From Heterodontus francisci (taxonomy: Eukaryota), in assembly GCF_036365525.1 (NCBI RefSeq), contig NC_090374.1, forward strand, positions 58,085,174 through 58,149,173: DNA of 64,000 nt, given 5' to 3'. Both the position numbers and the translations under genes were made by a program. Numbering within the stretch: position 1 is the stretch's first letter; every line of letters begins with the position of its first letter. Positions 17,682 to 42,224 of the stretch are shown here, piece after piece. The notes beneath the pieces were generated by a model that saw only the letters and a list, made by a program, of their open reading frames with translations, ran no database searches and was not told the origin of the DNA.

Positions 17682-18125
17682 CAGTGGCGGCGCATTGCCA
17701 CTCTGGGGCTGCCATTGCAACTGTGGGGCTGCCATTGCCACTGGGGGGGCCCTCTGTGGGCCATGGAGTGCCCAGAAAGGAAGGCCCCCCCCGGTTTACG
17801 AGGTGGTTTCCCCATGTGGCAGGGGCCCGCCCCGATGTTGGTAAAATGCCAGCGGGGTGGAAAGTATCATTTTATTGGCCATTTAGTTGAATTAATTGGC
17901 CGCCTGCCTCCAGTTGGTGGGCAGCTGCATCATTGCCATTCCCACGTCTGGAAATACCTTGTGACAGTGGGAAGACATCAAGCTTCCCTCCTGATGCCTT
18001 CTGCCACCATTTTACGAGCCCTCCCACCTCCCAGCCTACCTTCAGAGGGCTGGTAAAATTCAGTCAAAGATTTCAGGTCTGTGACTTTTCCCAATTCTGA
18101 TAAAAGGTCATCGACCTGAAATGTT

Positions 18126-18784
18126 GGGCTGCATTTTACTAGCCCTTTGGGGATGGGCTGGAAGATGGGAAGGCTGGCAAGCTGGTGCAGGAAGGCAGCA
18201 GGTGGTGTGCCCATTGTCTTTCTGCTGCCATGCTATCTTGCCTCCCGCCCAGAGCCCAACTGAATCTCTTAAGTGGCCAATTAAGGGCCTGTGTCCACCT
18301 CCACGGGCATTTACCCTGTGGCGGGTGGCCCTCCACTGCATGGAGAGACCACCAGTTAAACACTGGTAACCTTCTGGCGAGTCCTGGGGGTTGGGGGGGC
18401 CTCCTTTTGCCTATCGAGGAGACCTCCGGCGCCAATGGGCAACGGTTGGCCCTGCGGCAATGATGCTGTCTACCCTCACCAAGCACCCTCACCCCCAGCA
18501 GGGCCTGCCTGGTTCCTCCTCCCTGGTTGTCCATCAATGTGCCCTTTTCCTCCAGGGACAGCCCCAGCAGTGGCCAATGCTCCCGGTGGCATTGCTGAGG
18601 CTTGATGAGATGCCAGCTCTCTGATTGGCCAGCAGATCCTGGGGGCGGGCAGCCGTCCTTAATAGGGATGGCTGGCTGCTGCTGTCAAGATGCAGCCCTG
18701 GGTCCTGCTGGCTGCCAAAGCAGGTTTGCCTCCCATTTTCAGGCCAGGTGGTGAGACCCCTTCCTCCTGCTCTAAATCCAACCT
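18126..18784. mobile_element. Harbinger-type MITE, TSD GTT
   Basis: TIRs gggctgcatttta / taaatccaacct; GTT at 18123-25 and 18785-87. Confidence 0.8.
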
Positions 18785-19859
18785 GTTCATTCTGTTTCTC
18801 TCTCCACAGATGTTGCCAGACCAGCTAAGTATTTTCAGTAATTTCACTTTTTACTTCAGATTTCCAGCATCTGCATTTATTTTGCTTTTGTATTCTATGT
18901 CAGATGCTGATTGATTTGTTGTGTATTTCCCACATTTGTAGTTTCCTCTCTGGATGAAAAAGTCTGATATCGTTTACTAATAGCCATTGATTAATACTGA
19001 AAAGGAGTAATTCCAAAATGCCTTTGTACTGAAAGTGAAATATAGATTTGCTGGCTCATAAAATCTGTGGGTTGTGATCTTGGCAGTTACACTAGGATCG
19101 TGACCACTGGTGCGTTCCAGCACTGACCCTGTCAGAGTTTACTGAGTCAGTGGGAAGGCACTTAATATGCATGGGTCAGGTGGATGAGAGCACGACAATG
19201 GATCGAGGATGCTCCTTACATCAGTTATTCCCACTTATCCTGCCTGAAGATGTCTGCCTTATAAGAGGTAGGCAGAGGTTCCTCCCCTTACAAGGCATGC
19301 TGGAAAAATCTGGAAATGGTACAGCCCGGGCACAACCAATTTCCTACAGTCGATTCCACCAAGGTGCTGCTGGAGTTACAGCAGGATGCTAGCAGAATCG
19401 TCATGGATTTTCAAGGATGTTGTCGATGTTTCACGATGTGCCTTTTAACAAAGTCTTTCACTCATTTACTAGCTATTCCGATGCTATGTATTGTATATAG
19501 CAATATATTGTATTGTATATTATATAACGTTGCTCACAATTTGTCGAATATGGTTACACCATGCGATTTTGTGGTAACTTAGAAATAGTGAGGGCTCCTC
19601 ACAGTTCTGATCTTCTGACCATTTGCAGCTGAACATTGCCCTAATAAGAATGCCTGCACCTTACTGTTTGTCATTGGTTAAGCTTCTGAGTAACTTATGT
19701 AAAAGAATATCATGACAATGGCTACGTCCAAATATAAGAGCAAAAATTATGTTAGCCTTTATGAAACCTAATTTTTAAGGCATATTTGAATATTTTCAAA
19801 GGTTGCTTGGGCAAAAGAAAATTGGCTGGAAAATCCAGTAGGTGGCATAATAAATGTGA

Positions 19860-20110
19860 AGACAGGAAAGGGAGGTTACATGTTAGTGCCAGTACAATGC
19901 AGCACTCAAATCTCCTTCATGGTAGCTGGTGAATTGGAAGTGATGCTGCCTGAGGTGGGTGTGAGGAAGGTTGCTCTGTTTGCCACTTTAAGGCACTGTC
20001 CCCAGTGGAAAGCAGGACAACAAACCTGGCAGGGGGTCATGGCCAAGTTCAACACTTCCCACAAGACCTGGGAGCAGGCATGGAAGAAGTTGGCACTACT
20101 TAAGGAAGCA
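19860..20110 (+). mobile_element. Myb/SANT-like (Harbinger ORF2-type) remnant
   Basis: SF...ELEVMLPEV..RKVALF...W..V.AKFN..HKTWEQAWKKL shows Myb/SANT-like tryptophan spacing. Confidence 0.6.
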
Positions 20111-20419
20111 GCTGAGAGAAAACTACACAATGGTTTCCGTTATCAGGTATACGGACACAATTATGTGTCGCAAAGTGTTGCCAGGTAACCAGTTGCTCAT
20201 TTACTGCTGGCCCATGCTAGGACAATCATTATCCAGTGAATGAGTAGCACGGTGAGATAGAAACTCAACTATTGCTCCTGAAATGAAGCTGAGGCTATTT
20301 TAACTCCTAAGCATTATCTAACTCCCACTGGTCAACAAGTAGGGAAAATCGCATGGCCCAGAGCCCGTCCGCTGACACCAGCTCGGTGCCAGGATTGGCT
20401 CTGGGTGCCATATCACAGA

Positions 20420-20890
20420 AGAATAGAAAAGCAATATATTATTTAAATGGAGAGAGATTGCAGAACTCTGTGGTACAGAGGGATCTAGGTGTCCTGGTAC
20501 ATGATTCACAAAAAGTTACTATGCAGGTATAGCATGTGATTAGAAAGGCAATGGAATGTTGTCATTTATTGCAAGGGGAATGGAAAGAGGACTGGGGGTC
20601 ACTGTTTAAAAATAAGGTGTCGCCCATTTAAGACAGAAATAAGGAGAAATTTGTTCTCTCAGAGGGTCGTGAGTCTTTGGAACTCTCTTTCTCAAAAGGC
20701 AGTGGAAACAGAGTCTTTGAACATTTTTAAGGCAGAGGTAGATAGATTCTTGATAAGCAAGGAGGTGAAAGGATATTGGGGGTTGACATGAATGTGGAGA
20801 TGAGGTTACAATCAAATCAGCCGGAATCTTATCAAATGGCGGAGCAGGCTCGAAGGGCTGAATGGCCTACTCCTAATTTGTATGTTCATA
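20420..20890 (+). mobile_element. CR1 LINE 3' fragment with an internal deletion
   Basis: Similar to 55740-56476 (aaatggagaga...gggatctaggtgtcct, and the 3' UTR ggcggagcaggctcgaagggctgaatggcctact). Confidence 0.8.
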
Positions 20891-22074
20891 CATACATATG
20901 TTTGTATGAGCCTCATATTGGGGAAAGGAAAGGATAGTTCCATGCCAAAGAAGGTCTAAGCTTTCCATTGGGGACCCAGAGGAGCATTTGTTATTCTTTG
21001 CTTGACAAGGGAAGTAAAAGAAAAATACCTATCTGGGCCTTTTCCTGAATTGACATGCATATGCAAAGAAGGACCATGCTGACTTTGGGCAGTTATCCTT
21101 ACCACATGCTCAGTAGAACAGGTTAAAATTCAGCATGGTGAGTTCCGGGTAACTTTCTGACAAGTAAGTAATCTGGGTGATTTTAACTGCCCAACTGTCA
21201 GGCAGATAAGCTTAAAATTACCCCCAAGTCTCATTCATTGCCAACCATTTAAACCCATAGGGCACACATTAAAGTTGTAAATTGCAATTGAATACTTTGG
21301 CTTGCCCATATCTCCAAAGGGCTTCATGCAGGAAAGCATTCTAACACACACAATCTGTATGATGTATTATCATTTGAGGACAAGGATAATGGACTATGGC
21401 TTCACAGAATCACAGAATAATACAGTGCAGAAGAAGCCCTTCGGCCCATCGAGTCTGCACCGATGCATTAAAGACACCTGACCTGTCTACCTAATCCCAT
21501 TTGCCAGCACTTGGCCCATCGCACTTCAGCCCAGCCTGCTACTGTGTATGTGTTCTTTCAATTGATAACATAAGAACACATGAACAAATAAAAAAAATCA
21601 AGACTATGGACAATTCAAGTGCGCAGCGCCAATTTTTTGGGTGATGCTTGGTGCTTTAGGATAAAATATGCTGTGTGGCATGCATGCATTCAGTCCGTAC
21701 CTGAAGTACGTCGTATGCCATATTGATTCGAATGCCCCGTAGTTGTCCAGGGAGTGCTTTTGAAACAGGTATTAAGCCCATTGTTTTTGCCAGATTAGAA
21801 TACAACTGATTGCAGCATACTCCATGCATAATATGGTCCATTTTTTTGGGCACACAGCAACCAACCCAACAGTCCTTAAAGAGACTGCTACCTAAAGGAT
21901 AAGTACAAAATTTTATAATGTGGAGCAGGATGACTCCACATTATAAACTCCGGGCTGCTGACAGCTCGTTACCATCGTCCCTCTGCTCGATTGCTTCTAT
22001 CCTCACCTGGACTTACCTGTTGCCTTCATCTGGTGTCCCACCCAACCAGACTCACTCCTTTCCATGAACAACAA

Positions 22075-22375
22075 GCAGCCTCTGAGAAGTGTAGTCACTG
22101 TTGTAATGGAAGCAGGTATTGTAGACAATTTGTGCACACTAAGGTCCCATGCACAGCAGAATGACCAGTTATTCTGATTTTGTTGGTTTGGCTAATGTAG
22201 GGATGATGGCCAGAAGTCCTTTGCTATTTTTCAAATTGTGTGGTGGTATCTACCTGAAATGGCACGTGGGGTCTCATTTTAATGCTTCATCTGAAAAACA
22301 GAATCTCTCTCAAAGCCCCACTGCCTCAATCTTGCACTCATGTATTGGACTATATTATGTTAATCTTGCTGTTCC
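22075..22375 (-). mobile_element. DeuSINE-like fragment
   Basis: gaagtgtagtcactgttgtaatg...ttgtgcacactaaggtccca matches the 5460-5797 family. Confidence 0.55.
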
Positions 22376-23957
22376 GCAGAACTCTTGGAGAGTTTCCCTG
22401 TGATAGTAATAATTATGTATCTACTGCTATTCGTTCCATGATTCTGAAAACCTGAAAAAAAATTAACACTTGAAAAAAGATCCCAAAAGAACTTTAGAAT
22501 ATTTTCTTTCTGCCGCTTTATATTGGGACAACTTACAGCTTTCCTTTATCAGATAGCTATAATGGACAGAAAAGCTCCTGGACAGGACCTCTGCCCAAAC
22601 ATCAGAGAGTGAAATGAGCCTCCCGAAGACCTTCATTGCGTACTGTATGTATTCTTAGTACGGCTCCTACATGAAAGGAGATTGATTGACACATGTGATC
22701 AGCCCTAACTGAAATCTGCACGGAGTACATTTTCAGCAGTGACTGCTGGAATTATTAGGCCTGCAATTTGTCGGCTCCAGCTTGTACAGATCCCGCAATC
22801 AAGAGTAATACCACCAAGCAGAAAATTCACCTACCAGTTTCAGTCAAATGGAACTTGTTTATGTATTTGGAGGCATGGTACAAATACAGAAACTGGCACT
22901 CTTCGGCACAGAAAACAGACAACAGAGGGACAGCATCGGGATCAAGAAAGTTGATGAATAAGCAATAGTAACCGTAGCTGCAGGGGACAATTTTACATAC
23001 TGTTTTTCCGTTCGGAATGGTACAGTTAGCAAAGTAAGTTACCACTCTAGGCAATTCCTTAGCAATATTGGTGCAAAGCCAACAGCCCTACCCCCTTCAT
23101 CTCTGGGATTAAAAATCATTGGAAACTTTCTAATTATTCTCTCGTGGCCAGTCTGAGAATGTTGGGGAGCAAACATCTCATTCAAGCTGATCCAAAGAGT
23201 TACCTTGTAGAAGATTCATGAGGTGAAAGGCCCTCAGGCCCTATTGGTAAATGGAGTACATGTAATTAATTTAAATTCCAGCCTCAGCATGTTTGAAGTT
23301 GATTTATTTAAGTAGCTAATTTTTGTTAGCTTTTGACTGGTTCCCTTGAAGAATTGTTCTATTGCAGAAAGAAACACCAATCGAATGAGAGCAGCCCTTC
23401 AGAAGCGTACCATTGATTGGCCAGTCATGCACAGGGGAAGTTCATGACCCAGGTTACTCCTCTTGCCAAAATAAGGAAGAAGTGTGGTACTGGTGAGCAG
23501 AACAGAACAAAATTAAGTATCAACAAAGCAACAACTCACACTTTCATTAATACTTTGAGGATTGCAATAACATTTCTGCACCAGGTTCCATCTTCTGAAT
23601 TTTATTGCAGGAGCTTCTATTTTGTGGCATATTGCAATCTGCGACAGAAAAACAGCCACGCACGCTCCTGGGGGAGGGGGGCAAAGCCTACACCAGGAGC
23701 ATGACTTAATAAAATTTCTATAATGCACCGCTGATATCTTTGCCTTTCTAATTAATTAGGGGCAAATGTTGCAGAGCCTCACTATGAAGATTAAACCAAT
23801 TAGGTAGAGTTCATAATGCAATAGATTATTCCATTATTTCTATGTTCTTACATTTATGTCATGATCAGTGAAGATATAAATGAACCCTTAGAAAATACCA
23901 CATCAATGTTCATGAGAATGATCAGAAGATCCAGTGTTCACTGTAACTAACAATCTT

Positions 23958-24720
23958 GGCCAGAATTTTATGTTGAGCTGGAGGTTCCGCCCACCAGCCA
24001 AAAGGTCATGAGCTAGCCCGCCTCTGCCAGGCCTGGGAGTCACGCTATGATTTTACATGGCCCAGGTCCTTAATTGGCTTAGGGTGGGACTTCCACCCCT
24101 CTAAAGCAGGAAGTCCTGCCTCCAAGGGCTGCCAGCTAATTAGCGGGCCGGCAGTTCTCAGTGCCAGCATGCCATTGGGAGCGGTGACCACTGCTGGGAC
24201 TGCAGCCAGGGAGTGGGGCAAGAGGGACGCCGGCCCTGGAAAAAAGATAAGTTTGTGGGGCTTCGCCGGGGACAATCAGCTGGGCCCCAGAGAGCCAAAG
24301 GGCATTATGGTTGATTGGGGTTGGGTTTGTATTTCAGTGGGGTGGTTGGGCTGTTGGGGGGGCTCTCTTAGTGGGGCACAGAGAGCCTGATCAGGAGAGC
24401 TCTCCCCCACCACCCCAGCCCGCAAGGAGGCTACCAGGTTTTACTGGGCGGTCTCCTGGGGGCCCTGAGTCGCCTGCTGGCCACTGGTAAAATACCAGTG
24501 GCAGCGGGAGGAAGCCCTTAAGTAGCAGTTAATTGGCCACTTAAGGGCCTTAATTGGCCTACGGCGGATGGGCCATTTCTTGCCACCGCTGCCTCTCGTA
24601 AAATTGCAGTGGGGGTGGGAAGCTGATGGGAAAGGCACCCCCTGCCTGCCACTCAATTTTATGACCCCAATCTTCACCCCCCACCCTGTTCCTGTGAGGG
24701 GGCAGTGTAAAATTCAGGCC
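23958..24720. mobile_element. Harbinger-type MITE, TSD CTT
   Basis: TIRs ggccagaatttta / taaaattcaggcc; CTT on both flanks. Confidence 0.85.
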
Positions 24721-25442
24721 CTTGTGTTAATTTTGAAAAGTCAAGCCCTGAATTGAAAGAAGTTGAAAATTCAAATCCCTGTTCCAAAATTAGACTTTTT
24801 TTTTCATTTCTGTACAGGATTTCTTTATTTTGCTTTTTATGTATTAGCCAGTTTCAGTATTGATTATTTTTTCTTTCAGCACTTTTTAATAACTCATTCC
24901 TTCTGATTCGTCTCTTCTACCCTTTCTTTTCATAGTAATTTGCACTGAAATCTGCAGGGGTCCATTAATTCCTTCCGCAACTGGCAGATATCTGGCAGAA
25001 CCTGCTTAAAAACTGCAGGAACCTACATGTGTCAGGCCTTCAATGTTTCTAGGATTTTCTGGAGCCTCTATCCACCCCTTACTAGGTAAATACTGCTGGA
25101 GGGCAGAGCCAGAGCCACAGTCTCCTTTTGCTTGGAGTTTCCACTTCCCCAAATCATTTTGGAACTGGCACAGTATTGGAGGTTGACATGCTGAATAAGA
25201 TGAGGTGTGCCAGCCTCCAGCTGGGCAGTAATGATCCCAATTAGGGGAAACGGGGTCAAAGCCAACCAGGTGGCGTGGGCACCCAAAGAATGCCTTGAAT
25301 GTTTTTTTTTAAATAAAGAAATTCAGATTGACCCCCTTACACAAGGGGCTAATTGAATCTGAATGGGGATCTCGGGGTGCTGGGAAACCTTCCCGTTTGT
25401 TGCCATGTGATGTTCTCGCAGTGGCGCATACAGTTGCCTGTC

Positions 25443-28400
25443 TGTTATATATGTATATATTGTTATATTATCTGTAAAGTGTTAAGAACTAAGTAGTTAG
25501 GAACTAGTTGTTATGTGTAAGTGTTCCAGTAGGGGGCCACATTCATGGCTGCACTGGGGAGTCATGTTATATGTAACACAAGAATCAGGTTCTACAGCAC
25601 AGAACATGGTGCTATAATAAACAAGACTGACTCCAGCCTTTTCCAAGTTTTAAAGTGTGATTCCAACATCTGGGAACCAGAAACAACATAAAGATGAAAC
25701 ATGGTGGCAGCAAATGCCTTTGAGTAAACCTACAACATTTTTAAAAGCATCGGATTGAGAAAAATGACCCAAATTAGTGCCAGAGAGACAGAAAAACTGA
25801 GTGACTCATGCGAAAACTCTAAAAGAAAAAGATCAAAATGTCAGCCGGGACAGGAGTGAATGCACTGCTATAGCCCATCATGAATTGGGGAGCTGATGAT
25901 GTCGTAGAGGCATTTGAGAAGTTTGAATAAAAGTGCAATTTGGCATTTAGTAGTTTCTGAAAAAGCACAAGTGAAGAGGAGAGGGTCAGCTATATCCTTC
26001 TCTGGGCTGGAGATAAAGCATTAAATTTATTTAACAGCTGGGACCTAAGCGAAGAGGACATCAGAAACCCAGACAACATTTTTGATTCAGCATCCATCTC
26101 CAGCCAAAATCAAATCATCGGATATACCGATATGAATTTCAAGGTCTCAGACAGGAACTAGGTGAGCCTATTGACAATTATGTAGCAAGATTGAAAAATG
26201 CAGCCAGAAAATGTAAATTTAAGGACACAGTTGAACAGCTGATAGATCGGCTCATTTGGGGTTCTGCACATCCTGAAGTACAGAAAGCTCTAATCAGCAG
26301 GACAAGCTCACAATATCGCAGGCTGTAGTCACTGCCAGAGCACATGAAGCCATGAGCAGACAGATGAAGACTCTGACCTCCCAAATAGCAAGACTTCAGT
26401 TAAGCCAAGAGACAGGCAGCAGGGTCGATGCAGTGAAACAACAACTAAAGAATGTACACCAAACAGAGAGAAATATGGGCAGGAGCTATGGACGACCACA
26501 TGAATTGACAGATAGAAGGAAATGTCCCACATATGGATCAATCTGCAGGACTTGCGGAAAGACCAATCACTGGGAAAAGATGTGCAGAACAAGGCAAGAA
26601 GGTGGTAGACGAGTAATCAGAGCCAGAGTATTAGGGCGAAGGTACAGCAAAAGAAACCAAAGCATCCATACCCTGGGTGATGGGTTTGAGAACATGATAG
26701 ACATAGGAACCATAGAATTGCACGAAATGTCTGGATGTAACAGTTCCCAGAGAAACGAAATACACACAACCATTCAGATCAAGAAGAGGCTGAGAAATAA
26801 GCCCACAACGATAAATCTGAAGGTGAAGATTGATACTGGAGTGCAGAGTAACATCATCCTGCTCAGACTATACCAGCAGATCTGTCCTGAAAATTTGGAG
26901 AAAAATGGTTATCCAAGGGAAGGTGCTCTGAAACCAGACAATGTCATGCTAATAGCATACAGTGGAACTGAGATTTGACAGCTAGGAACAACCCAAATCA
27001 GAGGGACACACAAAGGAAAAGATGTTAACTGTATGTTCTACATCACAGAAACAGATGGTACAGCTATCCTGGGGTTGAGCAGTTGTGAAGAGCTGCAGAT
27101 TATCTCAGTAAACCATGAGGTGAAGGAGGCGACACTGAGGGTTGAAATAGTACACCCATTGAAAAGCGCCCTCCGATAAGCAAAGAAGATCTGGTACAAA
27201 TGTACCCAGAGTGTTTTGGTGAGACGGTTGGATGTTTCGAAGATTTTGCGTATCACGTCACTATTGACCCAGCGATGAAACCAGTGATTCATCCCCCACG
27301 TAAAGTGCCAGTAGAACTAAAAGGAATTCTTGAAAAAGAGCTCTAAGAAATGGAAGAAAAGAAAGTGATCGCCAGAGTCACAGAGCCTACAAATTGGGTA
27401 AATTCCATCGTGGTGAGAGGGAAGTCAAATGGACGGCTGAGAATTTGCCTCGATCCCAAAGATCTTAACCAAGCAATAAAGAGGGATCACTATCTTATTC
27501 CAACATTGGAAGAAATCACACCAGCACTGGCAGGGGCAAAAGTTTTCAGCAAGCTTGATCCCAGAAATGGCGACTGGAATGTGAAGCTAGAAGCAGAATC
27601 TTCACTGTTGACAACATTCAACACACCCTTTGGACGGTACAAATTCCTGCATCTACCCTTTGGCCTCAAGGTGAGCCAGGATGTGTTCCAACAGAAAGTA
27701 GACAAGACATACAGGGGATGCAAATAGCAGACGGCATAGCTGATGATATTCAGATATATGACGCAGATGGAAAAGATCATGACAACCATCTACATGAAGC
27801 CATGGAGTGAACCAGGAAAGCTGGGATTAAGCTAAATGAGACAAATGCGAAGTGAAAGTGACAGAATGCTAGTTCTTCGGAATGGTGTTAAGCCGAGCCC
27901 TGAAAGAATCTCAGCCATCTCGGGGATGGAAGCCCCAAGCGATAAGAGAGAGTTGAGAAGTTTCCTTCATTTGATACAATACATGAACTCCTTTATTCCG
28001 CACATGTCGGAACACACGGTAAACCTGCGGGAGCTGTGAAAGAAGATGTAGAGTACCAGTCACATGACAGGAGTTTCAACAAACTCAAAAAGGTAGTATG
28101 CAAGGAGACAAATCTGTCGTACTACAACAGAAAGAAACCTGTCACTCTACAGGTAGGTGCTTCCACTAAAGAACTGGGAACAGCCCTGGTACAAGAGGGA
28201 AAGCCAATAACATTTTTGTCCAAAGCTCTGACATCAGCTGAGACAAGATATCTCAACATAGAGAGAGAGCTTTTTGCAGTCGTGTATGGATGTGAGAAGT
28301 TCCACACTTATCTCTATGGGAGAAAGTTCACAGTGGAGAGTGCTTATTGTCCACTGGAGGAGATCTACAAGAAAAATCTATGGAAAGCACCAGCAAGACT

Positions 28401-30219
28401 GCAGAGGTTATTCTTGAGGCTTCAGTGTTATGATTTCACTCTGAAATATAAGCCAGGAAGAGAAATGGTGCCAGCAGCCACCCTATCTCTGTTGTCACCA
28501 TGGGAGAAACATGAGATAGAAGATCTAGACATAAAGATTCATCACCTAGTGAACGTAACAGCACCAAAACTGAGTTAAATTAGAGATGAGACCAGCAAAG
28601 ATGAGGAGTTGAAGATGCTATCTCAACAAGTGATCCAGGGATGGCCTGATAGGATACAGCACACACTGCCAACAATATGGCAGTACTGGTCTATCAGAGA
28701 TGACATCTCACTAGGAGATGGTGTTCTGCTGGCCGGATCCAGAATAATCATACCTAAAACAATGCAGGAAGAACTTCCCCAAAGATACACGAAGGCCACA
28801 TGGGAATGGAGAAGTGTAAGCTCAGAGCCAAATCAGCTGTGTACTGGATAGGCATATACAAAGATATTGAAAATATGGCATCTACATGCAATGTATGCCA
28901 GAAGTACAGAAACTCACAACAGAAAGAGGAGATGATAGTTACTGAAGTACCACCCAGACCATGGCATACTGTAGGAGTCGATTTATTCACACATAATCAA
29001 GAATGGTATCTCATAGTCCTAGACTGCTACTCAAAATTCCTAACAATAATCTCAGCAGTACGAGTTCTGTTCACTGAGCAAGGGATTCCTGAAAGGTTAA
29101 TATGTGACAATGGCACCTAATTTACATCCAGAGAATTTAAGCAATTCGCTGACCAGTATGGGATCAACACCATCACCTCATCGCCACACTACCCACCGGA
29201 ACACGGATTTATAGAAAGACACGTCCAGACGGTCAAAAGAACACTTGTGAAATGCCAAGAGACGAAGGGAGACCCTAACCTGGTCTTATTGTCACTCCGA
29301 TCACACCTCTCAAGGCTGACATGAAATCACCTGCAGAGCTGTTAAATGGAAGGAAATACAAGACAACTCTGTCAAGCAAAATACATCCTTCAAATAACCA
29401 GGAAGAAGTGAGACAACAACTCACTGAAGCACAGGTAAGTGGAGAGCAGCACTTCAACAAATATGTTAAATCCCTACCCGAGCTGTTGAAAGGCCAAACT
29501 GTACACGTACAGGATCCAATCATGAAAACCTAGAGCCCAGCAAAGGTTGTTAGTGAAGCTGAGACTCCAAGGTCATATATCATTGAGACTGAAACTGGTA
29601 ACCAAATGAGAAGGAACAGAATCCATATTCGACCTACACCTGAGCTGGAACAACAGAAAAGACCATCAACAACATCGAAAACATCACTATCCAGCGAGAC
29701 AACACTAACAACATCACCAGCAAGTGACACGACATCGCCTGTACAGCGTGCCAACTCACCACTGAGAGCAACAAATGCCAAATCTACAAGATGGAGGCAC
29801 AACATTTTACCACCCAAGCAATACCATGAATAATATTTTTTTAAAAGAATACACACTATAAAAGACTCTAAAAAGGGGTTCAGTTTATTTCCACAAGTCA
29901 AATGATAATTTTTAAAATTTATATTGACAGTTATATTGATAGAGGCATGTTTTAAAGAAAGAGGTATGCTATATTTGTTATACTATCTGTAAAGTGTTAG
30001 GAACTAAGTAGCTAGGAACTAGTTGTTATGTGTAAGTGTTCCAGTTGGGGCCACATTCATGGCTGCACTGGGGAGTCATGTTATATGTAACACAAGAATC
30101 AAGTTCCACCGGACAGAACATGGTGCTATAATAAACAAGATTGACTCCAGCCTTTTCCAAGTTTTAAAGTGTGATTCTTTCCAACATCTGGGAACCAGAA
30201 ACAACATGAAGATGAAACA
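25443..30219 (+). mobile_element. Full-length, decayed Ty3/Gypsy LTR retrotransposon (Mag-like)
   Basis: LTRs at 25443-25701 and 29967-30219 (TG...CA); TSD CTGTC; PBS TGGTGGCAGC at 25702 (tRNA-Leu-like); PPT aaagaaagagg. Gag knuckle CRTCGKTNHWEKMC, protease DTG, RT (LRICLDPKDLN, ADD), RNase H (IERELFAVVYGCEKFH), integrase (PWHTVGVDLF, DNG). Many stops and frameshifts. Confidence 0.96.
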
Positions 30220-30309: not shown

Positions 30310-30448
30310 TGCAAATACAAAATATTGCGGATGCTGGAAATCAGAAATAAAAACTGAAAATGCTGGAAATACTGAGCAGGTCTGGCAGCATCTGCAGAGA
30401 GAGAAAAACAGAGTTAACTTATCAGGTCAATGAGTTTTCATCAGACCT
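30310..30448 (-). mobile_element. Solo Penelope terminus with a degenerate hammerhead motif
   Basis: gaaaatgctggaaatactgagcaggtctggcagcatctg...gagttaac...tcatcag is the reverse complement of the Penelope 3' ends at 40615-40716 and 57128-57227. Confidence 0.75.
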
Positions 30449-30459
30449 TCTACCTTGAG

Positions 30460-31190: not shown

Positions 31191-32026
31191 TCCTCTCAAA
31201 TATATTAATGAGGGGCATTGATTTGAGTATAGAATAAGTCGCAGCCCATTTTTATTTAGTGCTATTCAGGGGATAACATTCTGTGACTGCTCATAATTCT
31301 GTGTTTAATTTTAATGCAACTTTTTTAATGCACAGAACAGCAAGGTTGGGGTAAATATATGAGCCAAGTATTTCCATTCAGGTGAAATCTCAGCATTAAC
31401 TAAATAGGGCAAACTTTGTATCTTCCACTGGATCCTGGTCTGTTTTATTGGGGCCAGGCAAATCTGCATTTTCTGGCAGCTTGCAGGGGGATTCTTGCAT
31501 CTGTTGGAGAGTAAGTCTCGGGAAGGTCCCACCTTCATCAGTGTGGTTGATAATTCTGTGAGTGACTATACTAGGCAAAGAGGCCCTTCAAATTCCCAAA
31601 GCAACCCTGAATGCCAGAAAATACTGATGTGCCTACCTATGAGACAAATGATAGTATAGATTGCATGGTGTTTTTCAGTTGTTAGTGTAGCTCCAGTCAT
31701 CTTCGAGCCTGATTTTCTATCTCACTCATTGCTCTATCAAGGCTTATGTTTCATCTAGCCACTTGGGAGGAAAGGAACAGTCATAGGGTATAGCAGCATT
31801 CACAGGAAGGTCCTAAACTTTGGTATGACTGAGAGGATGATTCTCAGGGTTTAGGAGAACTGGGGTCAGGCTCCTGGAGATCAGCAGCACTAGACTTTGA
31901 CAACATTGAGACCACCATCCTATAGTGCCAGAAGCTGCACTCACAGGATCTTGCTTCAAGTTCTTTAACTACTTTTAAAATGCAACTTCTGATATTGGTA
32001 AAGGTCGGTGGGGTGGTGGGAGAGGT

Positions 32027-32049
32027 GGGGGGGGGGGGGGGGGGGGGGG
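32027..32049 (+). repeat. Poly-G run (23 nt) in a G-rich tract
   Basis: Seen directly in the sequence. Confidence 0.9.
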
Positions 32050-32574
32050 TGGTGCGGGGGTGTTGGTGGTCATAGTTCAAAGCCTGCAGATTGTTCCAAA
32101 AGCATGCTTGTTTGATGGAACTGATGCATCCAAATAAAATAGTTCTGTATTTGGTAAAAATTCATATTAATAAAAACTGAATCAATTCAAATAACTTTGG
32201 GTTCACATTCTGGGTTCAGTGGTGTTGCTAAATTGTTATTGTTTGACGAAGTAGGAAAATTATTGACATAGAAGTCATAAGCTAGCACAGAGATAATCTC
32301 TTTTTGGCAAAGGAAGTATTTACAGCGATTCTCGTAAAGAATCAGTACTTCTATATTGACAAATATCCTTTATAGCTGCAGTACAATTATCATCATTTGA
32401 ATTTACTAGAAATGGTAGTTTATTCTGAGAATCAGCCCTGTGCACTAAATACTGTGTCATCTGTTTTGGTTATTACAAAATGCAGAGAATTATACTTAAG
32501 GGACTTAATAGATGGCTGTATATTCATAATTGCGGTTGAGAATGCTGTAATTCATTAGTCAGTGTTTAACAATT

Positions 32575-34075
32575 TTTTTTATTCTTTCATGGGATGTGGG
32601 CATCACTGGCCAGCATTTGTTGCCCATCCCTAAATGCCCTTGAGAAGGAGGTGGTGAGTCTTCTTGAACCGCTACAGTCCATCTGGTGCGGGTACACCCA
32701 CAGTACTATCAGGAAGGGAGTTCCAGGATTTTAATCCAGCAACAGTGAAGGAACAGCAATATATTTCCTAGTCAGGATGGTGTGTGACTTGGAGGGGGAC
32801 TTGACAGTTGTGGAATTCCCATGTGTCTGCTGCCCTTGTCCTTCTAAGTGGTAGAGGTCGCAGGTTTGGAAGGTGCTGTCTAAGGAGCTTTGGTGAGTTG
32901 CTGCAGTGCGTCCTGTAGATGGTACACACTGTTGCCACAGTGTGTTGGTGGTGGAGGGAGTGAATGTTTAAGGTGGTGAATGTGCTGCCCATCAAGCGGG
33001 CTGCTTTGTCCTGGATGGTGTTGAGCTTGCTGAGTGTTGTTGGCGCTGCACTCATCCAGGCAAGTGGAGAGTATTCCATCACACTCCTGACTTGTGCCTT
33101 GTAGATGGTGGACAGGCTTTGGAGAGTCAGGAGGTGGGTTGCTCGCTGCAGAATTCCTAGCCTCTGGCCTGCTCTTGTAGCCACAGCATTTATGTGGTTG
33201 CTCCAGTTCATTTTTTGGTCAATGATAACCCCCAGGATGTTGATGGTGTGGGATTCAACGATGATAATGCCATTGAACATCAAGGGGAGATGGTTAGATT
33301 GTCTCTTGTTTGAGATGGTCATTATCTGACACTTGTGTGGCGTGAATGTTACTTGCCACTTATCAGCCCAAGCCTGGATGTTGTCCAGGTCTAGCTGCAT
33401 AAGGACACGGGCTGCTTCAGTATCTGAGGAGTCGCGAATGGTGCTGAACATTATGCAATCATCAGTGAACATCCTCACTTTGACCTTATGATGGAGGGAA
33501 GGTCATTGATGAAGCAGCTGAAGATAATTGGGCCTAGGACACTACCCTGAGGAACTCCTGCAGTGATGTCCTGAGACTGAGATGATTGACCTCCAACAAC
33601 CACTTCCTTTGTGCTAGGTATGACTCCAATCAGCGGAGAGTTAGCCCCCTGATTCCCATTGACTCCAGTTTTGCTCGGGCTCCTTGATGCCATACTCGGT
33701 CAAATGCTGCCTTGTTGTTTAGGGCAGTCACTCTCACCTCACCTCTGGAGTTCAGCTCCTTTATCCATGTTTGGACCAAGGCTGTGACGAGGTCAGCAGC
33801 TGAATGGCCCTGGCGGAACCCAAACTGAGCATCAGTGAGCAGGTTATTGCTGAGCAAGTGCTGTTTGATAGCACTGTCGATGACCCCTTGCATCACTTTG
33901 CTGATGATTGAGAGTAGACTGACGCAACGGTAATTGGCCGGGATGGATTTGTCCTGCTTTTTTGTGAATAGGACAAACCTAGGCACTTTTCCACATTGCA
34001 GGGTAGATGCCAGTGTTCTAGCTGTACTGGAACAGCTTGGCTAGGGACGTGGCAAGTTTTGCAGCACAAGTCTTA
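32575..34075 (-). mobile_element. CR1-group LINE (distinct lineage), 5'-truncated
   Basis: NYRCVSLLSIISKVM, QFGFRQG, AFDRVWH, GVPQGSVLGP, FTDD, IYKAQVRSVMEYSPLAW motifs. Confidence 0.9.
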
Positions 34076-34283
34076 TTTACTAAAAACTGAAGGTGACATT
34101 TTTGTAAAAATTGCCCGCACTCAATCCAAATGCGCAGACATAATCTTGACTTTTGAATCAAGATTATCTTGAAGCAATTGTGAGGCAGATGCAAAAAAAT
34201 GGAATGGAATTGAATTTGTTCTGGAATATAGGTTGTTATCCATAAGTAAAATATAATTTGCCACAAAACGTTTACATAAAGTT

Positions 34284-34633
34284 GGGGCGGCACAGTGGTG
34301 CAGTGGTTAGCACTGCAGCCTCACAGCTCCAGCGACCCAGGTTCGATTCTGGGTACTGCCTGTGCGGAGTTTGCAAGTTCTCCCTGTGACCACGTGGGTT
34401 TCCACCGGGTGCTCCGGTTTCCTCCCACAGCCAAAGACTTGCAGGTTGATAAGTAAATTGGCCATTATAAATTGCCCCTAGTGTAGGTAGGTGGTAAGAG
34501 AATGGTGGGGATGTGGTAGGGAATATGGGGTTAATATAGGATTAGTATAAATGGGTGGTTGTTGGTCATCACAGACTCGGTGGGCCGAAGGGCCTGTTTC
34601 AGTGCTGTATCTCTAAATAAAAAAATAAATAAA
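34284..34633 (+). mobile_element. tRNA-derived V-SINE (HE1-like)
   Basis: A box TGGTGCAGTGG (34296), B box GGTTCGATTCT (34340), central cgtgggtttccaccgggtgctccggtttcctcccac, CR1-derived tail gggccgaagggcctgtttc, A-rich end. Confidence 0.9.
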
Positions 34634-37555
34634 TCAGGAACGCTAGGGTAAAGAGGTGACCTAAAACAAATTGATCCCAAGAATAATGAGAAAAGGACAA
34701 GAATGGCAACTCAACATCCCTGAATATAAAGTTTTCAGGCAGGATAGAAAGGGAGATAAAAAAGGAGGGGGTGTAGCATTATTAGTTAAGGAATCAATAA
34801 CAGCTTTGAGAAGGGATGATATGCAAAATGAATCATCAAATGAGGCTATATGGGTGGAGATCAGAAATAAAAAAGGGGCAGCCACACTACTAGGAGTGTA
34901 CTATAGACCCCCAAATAGTGAGTGGGAGATAGAGGGACAAACACGTAGGCAAATTGCTGAGTGCAAAAACTATAGGGCAATAATAGTTGGGGATTTCAAC
35001 TACCCCATTATCAACTAGGATACAAACAGTGTGAGGGGCATGGAGAGGACAAAATTCTTGAACTGCATTCAAGAGAACTTATTTAGCCAGCACGTAACAA
35101 GCCCAATGAGAGGGGGCGCAATTCGAGATTTAGTCTTCGGTAATGAAGTTGGACAAGTGGAGTAAGTAACAGTGGGTGATCATTTTGGAGATAGTGACCA
35201 TAATACAGTAAGTTTTAACATAATCATGGAAAAGAACAAAGATAAAACAGGAGTTAAACTTCTAAACTGGGGAAGGCAAATTTTAAGAGACTGAGAGGTG
35301 ACCTGGCAAAAGTGGACTGGATACAGCTACTTGAAGGAAAATCAGTGGCAAACAAGTGGGAGGCATTCAAAAGCGAGATCCTACAGGCACAGTGTAGGCA
35401 TGTCCCCACTAAGATAAAGGGTGGTACTGCCAAACCTAGAGGCCCCTGGTTATCTAGGAGCTTACAGGGTAAGTTAAAGTAGAAAAAGAAAGCTTATGAT
35501 GATCACAAAAATCTTAACACTTTAGAAAGCCTAGAGGAGTACAGAAAGTGCAGGGTGAAGTTAAAAAGGAAATTAGAAAAGCAAAGAGAGGGCATGAAGA
35601 ATTATTGGCAGGTAAAATCAAGGGAAACCCAAAGATGTTTTATCAGTACATTAAGAGCAAGAGGATAACTAAGGAAAAGATAGGGCCTATCAGAGATGTA
35701 CAAGGGAACTTATGCATGGGTGCAGATAATGTGGGCAAGGTTCTTAATGAGTTTTTTTGCCTCTGTCTTCACAAAGGAGAGGGTTGATATAGACGTTGTA
35801 GTTAGAGAAGAGGAGTGTGAAATATTAGATACGATAAGCATAATGAGAGACGAAGTACTAGAGGGTCTGACATCCTTGAAAGTGAATAAGTTGCCAGGGC
35901 CGGATGGCATCCCAGGTTGTTAAAGGAAGCCAGGGAAGAAATAATGGTTGCACTGAGGATCATCTTCAAATCCTCACTAGATATAGGAGAGGTACCAGAC
36001 GATTGGAGGTCTGCGAACGTTGTACCATTGTTTAAAAAGGGTGTGAGGGATAGGCCAAATAATTATAGGCCGGTCAGTCTGACCTCGGTGGTGGATAAAT
36101 TGTTAGAATCTATTCTGAGGGACAGGAAAAACTGCCACTTAGAAAGGCATGGATTCATCAGGGATAGTCAGCATGGATTTGTTAATGGAAGGTCATGTCT
36201 TACTAACTTAATTGAGTTTTTTGAAGAAGTAACAAGAAGGATTGATGAGGGTAGTGCAGTAGATGTGGTCTGCATGGACTTTAGTAAGGCACTTGACAAG
36301 GCCCCGCATGGCAGACTGGTCAGTATAATGAAAGCCCATGGGATACAGGAGAATGTGGCAGGTTGGATCCAGAATTGGCTCAGTGACATGAAACAAAGGG
36401 TAGTAGTCGATGGATGTTTTTGTGAATGGAAAGCTGTTTCCACTGGCGTTCCACAGGGTTCAGTCCCCATCCACCACCACCCTCCTCCGCCTGGCTGAAC
36501 TTGTTCTCACATTGAACAACTTCTCCTTCAACTCCACGCACTTCCTTCAAGTAAAAGGTGTCGCTATGGGTACCCGCATGGGTCCTAGTTATGCCTGTCT
36601 TTTTGTAGGATATGTTGAGCATCCTTTGTTCCAGTCCTAGTCAGGCCCCCTCCCCCAACTCTTTTTCCGGTACATTGATGACTGTATCGGTGCCGTTTCC
36701 TGCTCCGGCCCCGAACTGGAAAACTTTATCAACTTTGCTTCCAATTTCCACCCTTCTCTCACCTTTACATGGTCCATCTCTGACACTTCCCTTCCCTTCC
36801 TCGACTTCTCTGTCTCCATCTCTGGGGATAGGTTGTCTACTAATATCCATTATAAGCCCACCGACTCCCACAGCTACCTCGACTACACTTCTTCACACCT
36901 TACCTCCTGTAAGGACTCCATTCCATTCTCCCAGTTTCGCGTCTCCGACGCATCTGCTCTGATGATGCTACCTTCCATGACGGTGCTTCTGATATGACCT
37001 CCTTTTTCCTCAACCGAGGTTTTCCCCCCACTGTGGTTGACAGGGCCCTCAACCGTGTCCGGCCCATTCCCCGCACCTCTACCCTCACCCCTTCCCCTCC
37101 CTCCCAGAACCGTGACAGGGTTCCCCTTGTCCTCACTTTTCACCCCATCAGCCTCCATATCCAAAGGATCATCCTCCGCCATTTCCGCCACCTCCAGCGT
37201 GATGCCACTACCAGTCGCATCTTCCCCTCCCTTCCCCTGTCAGCAGTCCGAAGGGATCGTTCCCTCCGCGACACCCTGGTCCACTCCTCCATTACCCCCA
37301 CCACCTCGTCCCCGTCCCAGGGCACCTTCACCTGCAATCGCAGGAGGTGTAATACCTGCCCATTTACCTCCTCTCTCCTCACTATCCCAGGCCCCAAACA
37401 CTCCTTTCAGGTGAAGCAGCGATTTACTTGTACTTCTTTCAATGTAGTATACTGTATTCGCTGCTCACAGTGTGGTCTCCTCTACATTGGGGAGACCAAG
37501 CGCAGACTGGGTGACCGCTTTGCGGAACATCTCCGCTCAGTCCGCAAGCAGGACC

Positions 37556-40080
37556 TCCAAATAGTTCCAGAGATGTAGAGGAAAGGATAGCGAAGATGAT
37601 TCTCGACAGGGGCGAGAGTAACAGGGTAGTTGTTATGGGGGACTTTAACTTTCCAAATATCGACTGGAAATACTATAGTTCGAGTACTTCAGATGGGTCA
37701 GTTTTTGTCCAGTGTGTGCAGGAGGGTTTTCTGACACAGTATGTAGACAGGCCAACCAGGGGCGATGCCACATTGGATTTGGTACTGGGTAATGAACCCG
37801 GCCAGGTGTTAGATTTAGATGTAGGTGAGCACTTTGGTGATAGTGATCACAATTCGGTTAGGTTTATCTTAGCGATGGGCAGGGACAGGTATATACCGCT
37901 GGGCAAAAATTATAGCTGGGGGAAAGGAAATTATGATGCGATTAGGCAAGATTTAGGATGCGTAGGATGGAGAAGGAAACTGCAGGGGATGGGAACAATC
38001 GAAATGTGGAGCTTATTCAAGGAGCAGCTACTGTGTGTCCTTGATAAGTATGTACCTGTCAGGCAGGGAGGAAGTTGTCGAGCGAGGGAGCCATGGTTTA
38101 CTAAAGAAGTTGAAGCGCTTATCAAGAGGAAGAAGAAGGCTTATGTTAGGATGAGACGTGAAGGCTCAGTTAGGGCGCTTGAGAGTTACAAGCTAGCCAG
38201 GAAGGATCTAAAGGGAGAGCTAAGAAGAGCAAGGAGAGGACACGAGAAGTCATTGGCGGATAGGATCAGGGAAAACCCTAAGGCTTTCTATAGGTATATC
38301 AGGAATAAAAGAATGACTAGAGTTAGATTAGGGCCAATCAAGGATAGTAGTGGGAAGTTGTGTGTGGAATCAGAGGAGGTAGGGGAAGTGTTAAATGAAT
38401 ATTTTGCGTCAGTATTTACAGTAGAGAAAGAAAATGTTGTCGAGGAGAATACTGAGGTTCAGGCTACTAGGCTAGATGGGATTGAGGTTCACAAGGAGGA
38501 GGTGTTAGCAATTTTGGAAAGTGTGTAAATAGATAAGTCCCCTGGGCCAGATGGGATTTATCCTAGGATTCTCTGGGAAGCTAGGGAGGAGATTGCAGAG
38601 CCTTTGTCCTTGATATTTATGTCATCATTGTCAACAGGAATAGTGCCGGAAGACTGGAGGATAGCAAATGTTGTCCCCTTGTTCAAGAAGGGGAGTAGAG
38701 ACAGCCCTGGTAATTATAGACCTGTGAGCCTTACTTCGGTTGTGGGTAAAATGTTGGAAAAGGTTATAAGAGACAGGATTTATAATCATCTTGAAAAGAA
38801 TAAGTTCATTAGCGATAGTCAGCACGGTTTTGTGAAGGGTAGGTCATGCCTCACAAACCTTATTGAGTTTTTCGAGAAGGTGACCAAACAGGTGGATGAG
38901 GGTAAAGCAGTGGATGTGGTGTATATGGATTTCAGTAAGGCATTTGATAAGGTTCCCCACGGTAGGCTATTGCAGAAAATACGGAAGTATGGGGTTGAAG
39001 GTGATTTAGAGCTTTGGATCAGAAATTGGCTAGCTGAAAGAAGACAGAGGGTGTTGGTTGATGGCAAATGTTCATCCTGGAGTTTGGTTACTAGTGGTGT
39101 ACCGCAAGGATCTGTTTTGGGGCCACTGCTGTTTGTCATTTTTATAAATGACCTGGAAGAGGGTGTAGAAGGGTGGGTTAGTAAATTTGCGGATGACACG
39201 AAGGTCGGTGGAGTTGTGGATAGTGCCGAAGGATGTTGTAGGGTACAGAGGGACATAGATAGGCTGCAGAGCTGGGCTGAGAGATGGCAAATGGAGTTTA
39301 ATGCGGAAAAGTGCGAGGTGATTCACTTTGGAAGGAGTAACAGCAATGCAGAGTACTGGGCTAATGGGAAGATTCTTGGTAGTGTAGATGAACAGAGAGA
39401 TCTTGGTGTCCAGGTGCATAAATTCCTGAAGGTTGCTACCCAGGTTAATAGGGCTGTTAAGAAGGCATATGGTGTGTTAGCTTTTATTAGTAGGGGGATC
39501 GAGTTTCGGAGCCACGAGGTCATGCTGCAGCTGTACAAAACTCTGGTGAGACCGCACCTGGAGTATTGCGTGCAGTTCTGGTCACCGCATTATAGGAAGG
39601 ATGTGGAAGCTATGGAAAGGGTGCAGAGGAGATTTACTTGGATGTTGCCTGGTATGGAGGGAAGGTCTTACGAGGAAAGGCTGAGGGACTTGAGGTTGTT
39701 TTCGTTGGAGAGAAGGAGGAGGAGAGGTGACTTAATAGAGACATATAAGATAATCAGAGGGTTAGATAGGGTGGATAGTGAGAGTCTTTTTCCTCGGATG
39801 GTGATGGCAAACACGAGGGGACATAGCTTTAAGTTGAGGGGTGATAGATATAGGACAGATGTCAGAGGTAGTTTCTTTACTCAGAGAGTAGTAGGGGCGT
39901 GGAACGCCCTGCCTGCAACAGTAGTAGACTCGCCAACTTTAAGGGCATTTAAGTGGTCATTGGACAGACATATGGATGAAAATGGAATAGTGTAGGTCAG
40001 ATGGTTTCACAGGTCGGCGCAACATCGAGGGCCGAAGGGCCTGTACTGCGCTGTAATGTTCTAATTCTAATTCTAATTCT
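37556..40080 (+). mobile_element. Young CR1 LINE, 5'-truncated, ORF2 nearly intact
   Basis: ORFs 37596-38528 and 38604-39995 are in the same frame, separated by one TAA; TSD AGGACC; tail (TTCTAA)n. Confidence 0.96.
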
Positions 40081-40614
40081 AGGACCCTGAGCTTGCCATT
40101 TCAATACTCCCCCCTCCTCTCATGCTCACATCTCTGTCCTGGGATTGCTGCAATGTTCCAGTGAACATCAACGCAAGCTCGAGGAACAGCATCTGATCTA
40201 CTGATTAGGCACACTACAGCCTGCCGGACTGAACATTGAGTTCAATAATTTCAGAGCATGACAGCCCCCCATTTTACTTTCATTTTTAGTTATTTTTTCT
40301 TCCTTTTTTTACATTCTTTTTTACATTTTTTACAATCTTTTTTTTGCATTTATTTCATTTCATCTTAGTTTGTTCAGTTTGCTTACCCACTGTTTTTCTT
40401 CAGGTTTGCACTTGCTGCTGTTCAATATTCAGTGTATTAACACCTAATCTGTACTAATGCTTTGTCTTTCAACACACCATTAACATATTGTTTGCCTTTG
40501 CTCCGTGACGTTTTGTTCAGCTATGTGGCCTGGTCCAATCTGGACCTCCTTTGTTATCTCTTGCCCCACCCCCACCTCACTTGCTTATAACCTGTGACTT
40601 TTCTAATATTTGTC

Positions 40615-40651
40615 AGTTCCGATGAACGGTCACTGACCCGAAACGTTAACT
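40615..40651 (+). ncRNA. Minimal type I hammerhead ribozyme motif with a mutated core
   Basis: AGTT-CCGATGA-A-CGGTC-act-GACCC-GAAA-CG-TT-AACT in the Penelope 3' end; CUGA is changed to CCGA. Confidence 0.65.
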
Positions 40652-41824
40652 CTGCTTCTCTTTTCACAGATGCTGCCAGACCTGCTGAGTGGTTCCAGCA
40701 TTTCTTGTTTTTATTACCACAGGGTTCAGTGTTGGGTCCCTTGCTGTTTGTGGTATATATTAATGATTTGGACTTAAATGTGGGAGGCATGATTGGGAAA
40801 TTTGCTGATGACACAAAAATTGGCTGTGTAGTTGCTAATGAAGAGGATAGCGTAGACTCCAGAAAGATATCAGTGGTTTGGTTGAATGCGTGGAAAAGTG
40901 GCAAATGGAATTCAATCCAGATTAGTAATGCATTTGGGGAGGGCAAATAAAGCGAGGGAATACACAGTAAATGGGGGGATATTGAGAAGGGTAGAAGAAG
41001 TGAGAGACCTCGAAGTGCATGTCCACAGGTCCCTGAAGGTGGCAGGACAGGTAGATAGAGTGGTGAAGAAAGCATATGGAATGCTTTCCTTTATTGACCA
41101 AGGTGTAGAATTCAAAAGCAAGGATGTAATACTGGAACTGTATAAAATGCTGGTTCGGCCACAGTTGGGAGTATTGCATACACTTCTGGTCACCACATTA
41201 CAGAAAGAACATAATTGCTCGGATGAGAGTACAGAAGAGATTTACAAGAATGGTGCCAGGACTTGAAAGTTGCAGCTATGAGGAAAAATTGGATAAGCTA
41301 CGGTTGTTTTCCTTAGAACAGTGGAGGCTGAGGGGTGACTTAATTGAGGTGTACAAAATTATGAGGAGTCTAGATAGAGTAAACAGGAAGGACCTGTTTC
41401 CCCCTAGCAGAGAGGTCAATTACCAGGGAGCACAGATTTAAGGTGATTGGTAGAAGGATTAGAGGGGACATGAGGAAAAACTTTTTCACCCAGAGGGTGG
41501 TGGGTGTCTGGAATTCACTGCCAGGAACAGTGGTGGAGGCAGAAACCCTCAATTCTTTTAAAAGACATGCACCTGAAGTGCTATAACCGGCAAGGCTATG
41601 GACCAGGTGCTGGAAGATGGGCTTAGATTGGGCAGCTAGTTTTTTTGGCAGGCAAGGACATGACGGGCTGAATGGCCTACTTCTGTCTGTAATTTTTCTA
41701 TGGTTCTATGGTTTAATTTATGCAGTTTGGATTTTTGTTTATGTATCTACATTACCTTCCTTGCACCTAAATAGGGTATAAATAGATAAATAGATGTGTG
41801 GGAATATAAGTCTGGAATTCGGGT

Positions 41825-42224
41825 ATAAAAACAGAAAGTTCTGGAAAAATTCAGGAGGTCTGGCAGCATCTGTGGAGAGAGAAACAGAGTTAATAGGCTG
41901 GATTTTACCATAGGCAGACGGGAATTCGTCACCTACGCAAAAGTCGGTGGCGAGCCCACTTCCGCCTCGCCTGGGGATCCGTCCCATATTTCACGAATTC
42001 CCGGGCTTTAATTGTCCCGAGGTGGGACTTCCACCCACTTGAGGGAGGAGGTCCCGCCTCAGTGAGCTGCCGGCCAATCAGCTCTTAGTCCCAGCAGCGC
42101 CACCAGGTGCAGCGTAAAATTCAGCCCAATGTTTAAGGTCTGTGACCTTTCATCAGAACCTTTCATCTGTTTTTATTTCTGTTTTTATTTCAGATTTCCG
42201 GCATCCGCGGTATTTTGATTTTAT
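41825..42224. mobile_element. Inverted pair of Penelope termini with a 14-bp TSD
   Basis: TCTGGAATTC(G/A)GGT at 41811-24 and 42225-38; a minus copy is followed by a plus-strand tail remnant. Confidence 0.75.
41895..42127. mobile_element. Short Harbinger-type MITE, TSD AAT
   Basis: TIRs aggctggattttac / gtaaaattcagccc; AAT on both flanks. Confidence 0.85.

Follow-up and report, generated by a model that had tools for sequence, protein, structure and literature searches.

Introduction

Transposons of the PIF/Harbinger superfamily insert with a target-site duplication (TSD) of 3 bp and a palindromic extended target preference, as described for zebrafish Harbinger3_DR in the accessible parts of two papers (PMC3016246, PMC2836001). 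Penelope-like retroelements carry minimal hammerhead ribozymes; the parts of PMC4209133 and PMC11167929 available to us describe motifs with the core boxes, an extra base before stem II, a loop-less palindromic 15.2-16.2 and a short stem I, mostly dispersed as single motifs of truncated elements. Here, the two kinds of element meet. This paper concerns a stretch of 64,000 nucleotides from Heterodontus francisci (NC_090374.1, positions 58,085,174 to 58,149,173, forward strand), called the window below and the source of the coordinates, in which Harbinger-type elements interrupt Penelope termini at one position, the predicted cleavage triplet (NUH) of the hammerhead. Across the genome, this position is a hotspot for independent insertions, used well beyond what the general target preference of these elements predicts.

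DNA transposons found at a fixed position of a conserved multicopy RNA motif have, of course, been described before. Dada does this strictly and Pokey in part, according to the portion of PMC3706591 that was accessible, and Pokey, like the Harbinger elements here, also inserts elsewhere. Dada families, however, are target-specific, whereas about 3% of the ends studied here lie at the site, and the target is another mobile element. [quoted passage not shown] The present case differs from these in that the site is exact to the base and lies within the ribozyme of a retroelement, and in that at least two Harbinger families, as defined by their terminal inverted repeats (TIRs), use it. The accessible parts of PMC4209133 and PMC11167929 report no DNA transposons in the hammerhead motif, those of bioRxiv 10.64898/2026.07.22.740005, PMC9179366 and PMC8437027 hold nothing on target sites, and literature searches outside subscription journals, Repbase reports and supplements turned up no account of DNA transposons at the hammerheads of Penelope.

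The site and the insertions in the window

The site in uninterrupted form is seen in a Penelope-like 3' fragment at 56481-57228 (plus strand), which consists of a putative broken GIY-YIG remnant (56481-56882), an untranslated region (UTR), a minimal hammerhead and a tail. The remnant contains two in-frame stops on translation, and its Pfam GIY-YIG match (E=0.0013, 19.4 bits) lies under the 22.6 cut-off. The predicted hammerhead, a minimal type I motif that is intact here (57128-57164), reads AGTT (57128-57131), CTGATGA (57132-57138), stem II as AGGTC-ACA-GACCT (57140-57152), GAAAC (57153-57157), the hotspot triplet GTT (57158-57160) and AACT (57161-57164), with AGTT and AACT forming stem I.

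Three elements in the window occupy this triplet in other Penelope copies. Two of them share one inverted terminus, with one element in each arm. Its minus arm begins with a tail (15671-15732), followed by a Harbinger-type element of 2,334 bp in the GTT register (15733-18066), which contains a nested CR1 fragment at about 16530-17212; its left TIR tip and junction are deleted, and its right-end register reads AAG for AAC. The center of the terminus (18067-18125) holds a reverse hammerhead half (18067-18087) and a forward core that ends in the left TSD, GTT (18123-18125). Then come a MITE of 659 bp (18126-18784), the right TSD GTT and a plus-strand Penelope tail (18785-18890). The third element, a MITE of 233 bp (41895-42127), splits a minus-strand terminus into a tail ending in the TSD AAT (41824-41894, TSD at 41892-41894) and a part holding the second AAT and the hammerhead core (42128-42159); read on the Penelope strand, this TSD is ATT. 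This MITE is a short member of the largest family found at the site.

A preliminary description of this DNA had given GACCT-GAAAC-GTT-AACT at 57148-57164 and the junctions of these three elements, and all of these coordinates and duplications are as it placed them. It had also called the three insertions independent. They are indeed separate: the two elements sharing the inverted terminus are identical in 223 of 322 aligned columns (69%) and are thus less alike than the Penelope arms that host them (83%). These two are, however, related to each other. A cluster of all three insertions within 64 kb is rare, with about 0.05 expected.

The evidence that the triplet belongs to a hammerhead comes from an alignment of 47 uninterrupted copies, 44 of them distinct, with the consensus AGTT-CYGAWGA-A-stem II-GAAAC-GTT-AACT. 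The core boxes CUGANGA and GAAA, the NUH triplet and the palindromic 15.2-16.2 are present, one subfamily having CCGAAGA. The nine proposed pairs of stems I and II are kept in 95.9% of 395 cells (44 distinct copies), against at most 45% in slid controls, and the covariation score was matched by none of 500 shuffles. One pair dominates that score, the first of stem II (which would correspond to the conserved G10.1-C11.1 pair of hammerheads); it is A-U in 19, G-U in 15 and G-C in 8 of the 44 copies. Because the copies are mutually related, the support for the stems is moderate. The motif agrees with the minimal type I hammerhead that Penelope-like elements carry (PMC4209133), GTT being its predicted NUH; in this predicted form, the earlier identification of the duplicated triplet is supported by alignment and pairing.

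An Rfam scan of the window gave no hammerhead match at E<=1. This is not a defining failure, because the minimal motifs of PMC4209133 were found, according to its accessible part, with that paper's own relaxed descriptor. The folding energy of the motif is ordinary (z -0.3). The core differs among the hammerhead subfamilies (CTGATGA, CTGAAGA, CCGAAGA), together with a compensatory A-U to G-C change in the pair that closes stem II. Contigs from four sequencing runs, from four organisms, also contain the Penelope terminus; no TIR was found on the 24 loose ends listed from them.

Identity of the inserted elements

The perfect 12-base TIR has 106,386 matches (control, 706) in the 6.01-Gb genome, which all genome-wide pattern counts cover. 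Among 17 paired candidates, six had an exact duplication of 3 bp and none had one of 4-9 bp; the sequence of the TSD is variable. For the transposase domain PF13359 (DDE_Tnp_4) the genome holds 57,863 candidates, of which 150 were scored. Twenty coding loci were fetched, and ten proved to be elements of 3.6-5.3 kb with a related TIR, GGCCRGAATTTT, and exact 3-bp TSDs.

One of these ten complete coding elements of the GGCCGG TIR family, L234, is inserted at a Penelope GTT; its transposase matches PF13359 with E=2e-38. A second coding element at a Penelope site, L318 (4,346 bp), has perfect GGGCTG TIRs and a transposase 48-55% identical to that of L234 (tblastn). Their second open reading frames (ORFs) encode the Myb/SANT-like domain Myb_DNA-bind_5 (PF13873; E=1.1e-9 in L318, 3.5e-6 in L234). 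Both MITEs and transposase-coding copies therefore sit at GTT, and they come from two TIR families. The 3-bp TSD, together with DDE_Tnp_4 homology and Myb_DNA-bind_5 in coding copies that share the TIR, assigns the elements to PIF/Harbinger, as the preliminary description had held.

The window contains a broken but full-size coding copy of its own, 4,673 bp long (58465-63137, plus strand), with the TIR family of the MITEs and a TSD (AAA/AAA) at a non-Penelope site. Its transposase remnant lies at 59437-60379 (plus strand), and tblastn aligned the element at 53% over 275 amino acids (E=2e-87) and 48% over 146. A 47-residue fragment of its second ORF, the remnant of which is at 61565-61975 (minus strand), gave no domain match. 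This is likely to be the kind of element that mobilized the MITEs, and the common TIR, TSD and target logo suggest that proteins of such coding elements moved them.

Two structures elsewhere in the genome also bear these ends. At L179-L185 (contig C1, about 5.505-5.508 Mb), tandem units of 38-39 bp each carry the motif of the TIR; this array is probably a satellite that arose from the end of a MITE. At L327 (contig C10:56501340-56504300), two TIR junctions have mirror-image flanks 2.8 kb apart with a transposase remnant between them; the structure is an inverted duplication with a Harbinger at its center.

Independence of the insertions

A single Penelope copy carrying a MITE might, of course, have been multiplied with its passenger. 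In that case, the hotspot would stem from a few composites, multiplied through retrotransposition or through duplication. Among 80 complete elements, 39 were marked as lying at the site, and 37 remained after two false TIR pairings (L034 and L052) were removed; three tandem duplicates near C1:7.86-7.91 Mb were represented by one fetched copy. These 37 form 24 clusters with a highest identity of 85%, and five of the six multi-member clusters also contain copies that lie off the site. Orientation is the same in 64 and opposite in 60 of the 124 alignable pairs. A tree of the largest family (13 rows, leaving aside the 233-bp window MITE) is star-like and has no site clade, with 5 label changes against 4.1 when shuffled. 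Of 30 loci selected by the left junction, 20 also yielded the far junction, as did 18 of 30 selected by the right one, so there is no excess of 5'-truncated composites.

Some observations do fit amplification: eight of the nine site copies of the largest family are in one orientation, a star tree is compatible with amplification at the time of a burst, and a few of the listed matches are local duplicates. Retrotransposed composites are nevertheless ruled out by element diversity and by the symmetry of left and right junctions, and amplification of any kind is a highly improbable source of the hotspot. The insertions at the site are independent, as had been proposed; they do not descend from one composite that Penelope amplified.

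How often the site is used

The site itself is common. A 20-mer of it, with at most one mismatch, has 175,468 matches in the genome; in 100 samples of 10 kb, spread evenly over contigs C1-C5, the density is 30 per Mb by this pattern and 46 per Mb by blast, for a copy number of about 175,000-280,000. With at most one mismatch, the left junction pattern (a 25-mer) gave 1,143 matches and the right junction pattern (a 22-mer) 2,452, while the reversed-pattern control of each gave 0. The exact left junction with GTT or ATT has 569 matches, which corresponds to a fill of about 0.6% (569 of about 96,500 Penelope sites). Because the TIR, where it was not selected for, is perfect in 11 of 36 composites, we estimate that 1.5-2% of the sites are filled, by about 4,000-5,500 insertions out of some 165,000 elements.

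Seen from the transposon, the site is a minor destination. Among 121 perfect ends collected without bias, four lie at the site (two of 90 ends in TIR-selected loci, both ends of L001, and none of 29 in a random megabase), with an interval of 0.9-8.2% calculated for 4/122; the other 117 (about 97%) lie elsewhere, and many other junction flanks recur in other repeats. A second hotspot, in what we take to be a CR1-type coding region, has 28 exact junctions among 9,927 sites (0.28%; loci L164, L171, L187, L306-L317) and is thus filled about half as often as the Penelope site. Recurrent insertions were also seen at another site in a long interspersed element (LINE; L140:5846-6497, L128:2372-3168) and in short tandem LINE tails (L261, L264, L275, L303).

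Across 31 positions around the Penelope site there are 454 junction matches. Among the 100 of these that were listed, 83 by eye are at GTT (74 exactly, 9 with small indels), 10 at TCT and 7 elsewhere. The TCT site, 6 nt downstream of GTT, adjoins an inverted GAAAC half site, and its use is above prediction.

The preliminary description went further, and held that the transposon family uses the ribozyme motif as its landing site. One might suppose, by analogy with Dada and small-RNA genes, that a Harbinger lineage was selected to target the motif and so to parasitize Penelope. The site is the most used among those measured, and GGGCTG elements fill an older Penelope subfamily while one GGCCGG coding element, L234, fills a younger one. 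An evolved landing pad is still very unlikely. The great majority of ends are found in other places, members of the MITE families seen here also occur off the site, the target logo resembles that of zebrafish Harbinger3_DR, use of the CR1 site comes within about 2-fold, further use falls on the TCT site, and many targets had likely already decayed to ATT. Nor do most copies of one family share one target, as those of Dada do: the counts are four of 121 ends and one of ten GGCCGG coding elements. The site is, in short, an unusually hot DNA target, a hotspot, and not a dedicated home.

Host copies, decay and harm to Penelope

Every one of the 40 GGGCTG composites belongs to the older, CTGATGA-type Penelope subfamily, as do 11 of 24 intact copies taken at random (p=2e-7). 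The pattern that picked part of this sample leaves out one young variant, but the 14 right-selected composites agree with the rest. The single GGCCGG element at the site, L234, lies in the other, younger subfamily. By this nesting, the GGGCTG burst came later than one Penelope subfamily and likely earlier than another.

The triplet is often decayed. By eye, the core CpG is intact in 16 of 100 left junctions against 65 of 100 intact sites, and the first TSD base is A, giving ATT, in 56 against 18. A change of both CpG bases (TA) is seen in 13 of the 100 left junctions listed and in 1 of 100 intact sites, more often than plain decay would lead one to expect. A right ATT accompanies a left ATT in 8 of 9 cases and is found in 11 of 24 others (p=0.047); many targets therefore likely lacked the G of the triplet before insertion. 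We infer that about a third of the insertions struck copies in which the triplet was by then ATT: old DNA of the chromosomes, whose ribozyme was damaged.

The preliminary description saw in these insertions one element parasitizing another. The case is weak, for about 98% of the sites carry no insert, and the hosts are for the most part short, truncated termini, with 10 of 41 reaching the upstream UTR; there is little sign of harm to Penelope. The idea is weakened further by the accessible parts of PMC4209133 and PMC11167929, where mutants of the hammerhead ribozyme show no reduced insertion in vitro and cleavage is low or protein-assisted.

The general target preference and the excess

The general target logo was built from 125 perfect non-Penelope ends, with the tandem array L179-L185 excluded. 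It has A at -7 (0.70), A (0.55) or T (0.26) at -5 and C (0.59) or T (0.22) at -4, so that A-N-(A/T)-(C/T) is preferred directly outside the TSD on both sides, as a palindrome. A.AC occurs in 29 of the 125 ends against 1.8 expected, and a pyrimidine-purine step at -4/-3 in 58 against 28. Harbinger elements were expected to have such an extended preference, and these do. As far as the accessible parts of PMC3016246 and PMC2836001 show, Harbinger3_DR shares the 3-bp TSD, the DDE transposase with a Myb/SANT-like ORF and the bases A at -7, A at -5 and C at -4, and the logo core matches its consensus, AAACACCWGGTCTTT (PMC3016246). Set against the same accounts, there are two differences: TSDs here are loose, with no CWG, and a single site, borne on a repeat, is used about 5-25-fold above the logo and falls on a predicted ribozyme cleavage triplet.

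GAAAC is a near-ideal half site, and the right half fits the logo less well. Outside Penelope, the left half, GAAAYRTT, is enriched 37-fold (114 junctions). For the GTT form, the matrices predict 20-56-fold; with the TSD columns included, the ATT form reaches at most about 200-fold. The observed enrichment is about 500-670-fold, with denominators from small samples (8-58 counts) that make it accurate to perhaps 30%. The site is thus used well beyond the expectation from the general logo, as the preliminary description anticipated. Longer logos (12 or 16 bases) and corrections for decay leave the gap unclosed. Away from the site, the logo performs well: 12 of the 15 junctions downstream fall on two of its four predicted offsets, and the CR1 site is enriched 321-fold where 500-665 is predicted. 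At the site, it accounts for the candidate bases and for some of the rate, and leaves a 5- to 25-fold excess above its prediction.

With fair confidence, we favor the view that thousands of independent insertions reflect a transposase that reads the GAAAC-GTT duplex as an unusually good DNA target, without recognizing the ribozyme. Here, the conserved GAAAC core of the hammerhead would fix the half site, and the geometry, a 5-bp half site followed by a 3-bp TSD, would place the duplication on the NUH triplet. A non-additive readout of sequence or shape may supply the further boost of about 5- to 25-fold; candidates for it are the overlapping palindromes AACGTT and GTTAAC, through which each of the two cuts falls on a pyrimidine-purine step. 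Stem I of the copy that is hit would be disrupted, but most hosts are old and truncated.

Several results weigh against this view. Models in which positions act independently fall far short of the observed rate, whether the 20-56-fold of the matrices or the product of the half sites, about 75-fold after removal of the shared TSD term (21/125 against 7.1%). The right half site is weak outside Penelope, at 5-fold from 2 matches (Poisson 0.2-7.2). Within the same elements, the ratio of use at GTT to use in the downstream region is 25 (at least 15), where 0.6-1.0 is predicted. Finally, an AAC right flank was found in none of 8 readable non-Penelope GAAAYRTT sites, too few for a test; the 17 such sites fetched (8 with readable far ends, 1 a truncated Penelope copy, 8 unreadable) gave no signal of coupling between half sites.

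The excess might instead be an error of the model, so that the ordinary logo alone is at work and the pooled 125-end matrix, decayed flanks, CpG effects or the age of Penelope subfamilies mislead us. Errors at single sites are certainly large, and can be several-fold in the direction opposite to the excess: two of four predicted downstream offsets have no matches, and upstream offset 9 has one of the 100 listed. The right-half estimate depends on its two matches, and the confinement of GGGCTG composites to the older subfamily shows how age could enter. However, a ratio taken within elements allows for both age and region, and its lower limit of 15 exceeds the bootstrap 97.5% upper bound of the prediction, 2.4-8.8. 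The remaining errors all run downwards, and stratifying by age increases the occupancy that needs explaining. Model error is, on this evidence, unlikely to be the whole answer.

Alternatively, structure or transcription might guide the transposon: the hairpin of stem II, an R-loop or a protein bound to Penelope would expose the exact position. The excess is limited to a few bases beside the core (454 matches against 56 expected upstream of the anchor, 15 against 33 downstream); the TCT site nearby is likewise above prediction, and two TIR families use the same base. Conversely, the ATT-decayed copies, which are likely silent, are favored, the folding energy of the motif is ordinary, and composites have long inverted arms no more often than intact copies do (11 of 41 against 18 of 65). 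Guidance of this kind is distinctly improbable. A bolder form of the idea holds that the hammerhead locus steers transpososomes beyond its letters, by hairpin, R-loop or Penelope protein, and that its unmutatable core is a lasting trap for DNA transposons of different families in vertebrates; this, too, seems rather unlikely. Two simpler models are ruled out: a long-palindrome (cruciform) model by the arm counts just given, and a general openness of Penelope termini by the downstream region, which lies under expectation and not over it.

Other features of the window

The window holds two more uninterrupted hammerhead-plus-tail copies, at 40610-40717 (plus strand) and, decayed, at 30313-30454 (minus strand). 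Besides 58465-63137, complete elements with these TIRs lie at the non-Penelope sites 23958-24720 and 42764-43594, MITEs with the TSDs CTT/CTT and AGT/AGC, respectively. Pieces of CR1-type LINEs are abundant. An inverted repeat element with 93-bp arms lies at 12054-12722, and an inverted repeat pair (34289-34614 and 60687-61025), 26 kb apart, is 92-93% identical.

Implications

Thousands of natural, independent insertions at one site that beats the logo provide a test bed for target choice by Harbinger transposons, a choice that is relevant to site-biased gene delivery. The nesting, in turn, orders events among the Penelope subfamilies and the GGGCTG burst. Penelope hammerheads throughout the animals conserve GAAAC-GTH, so that further genomes bearing Harbinger elements are predicted to show this hotspot too.

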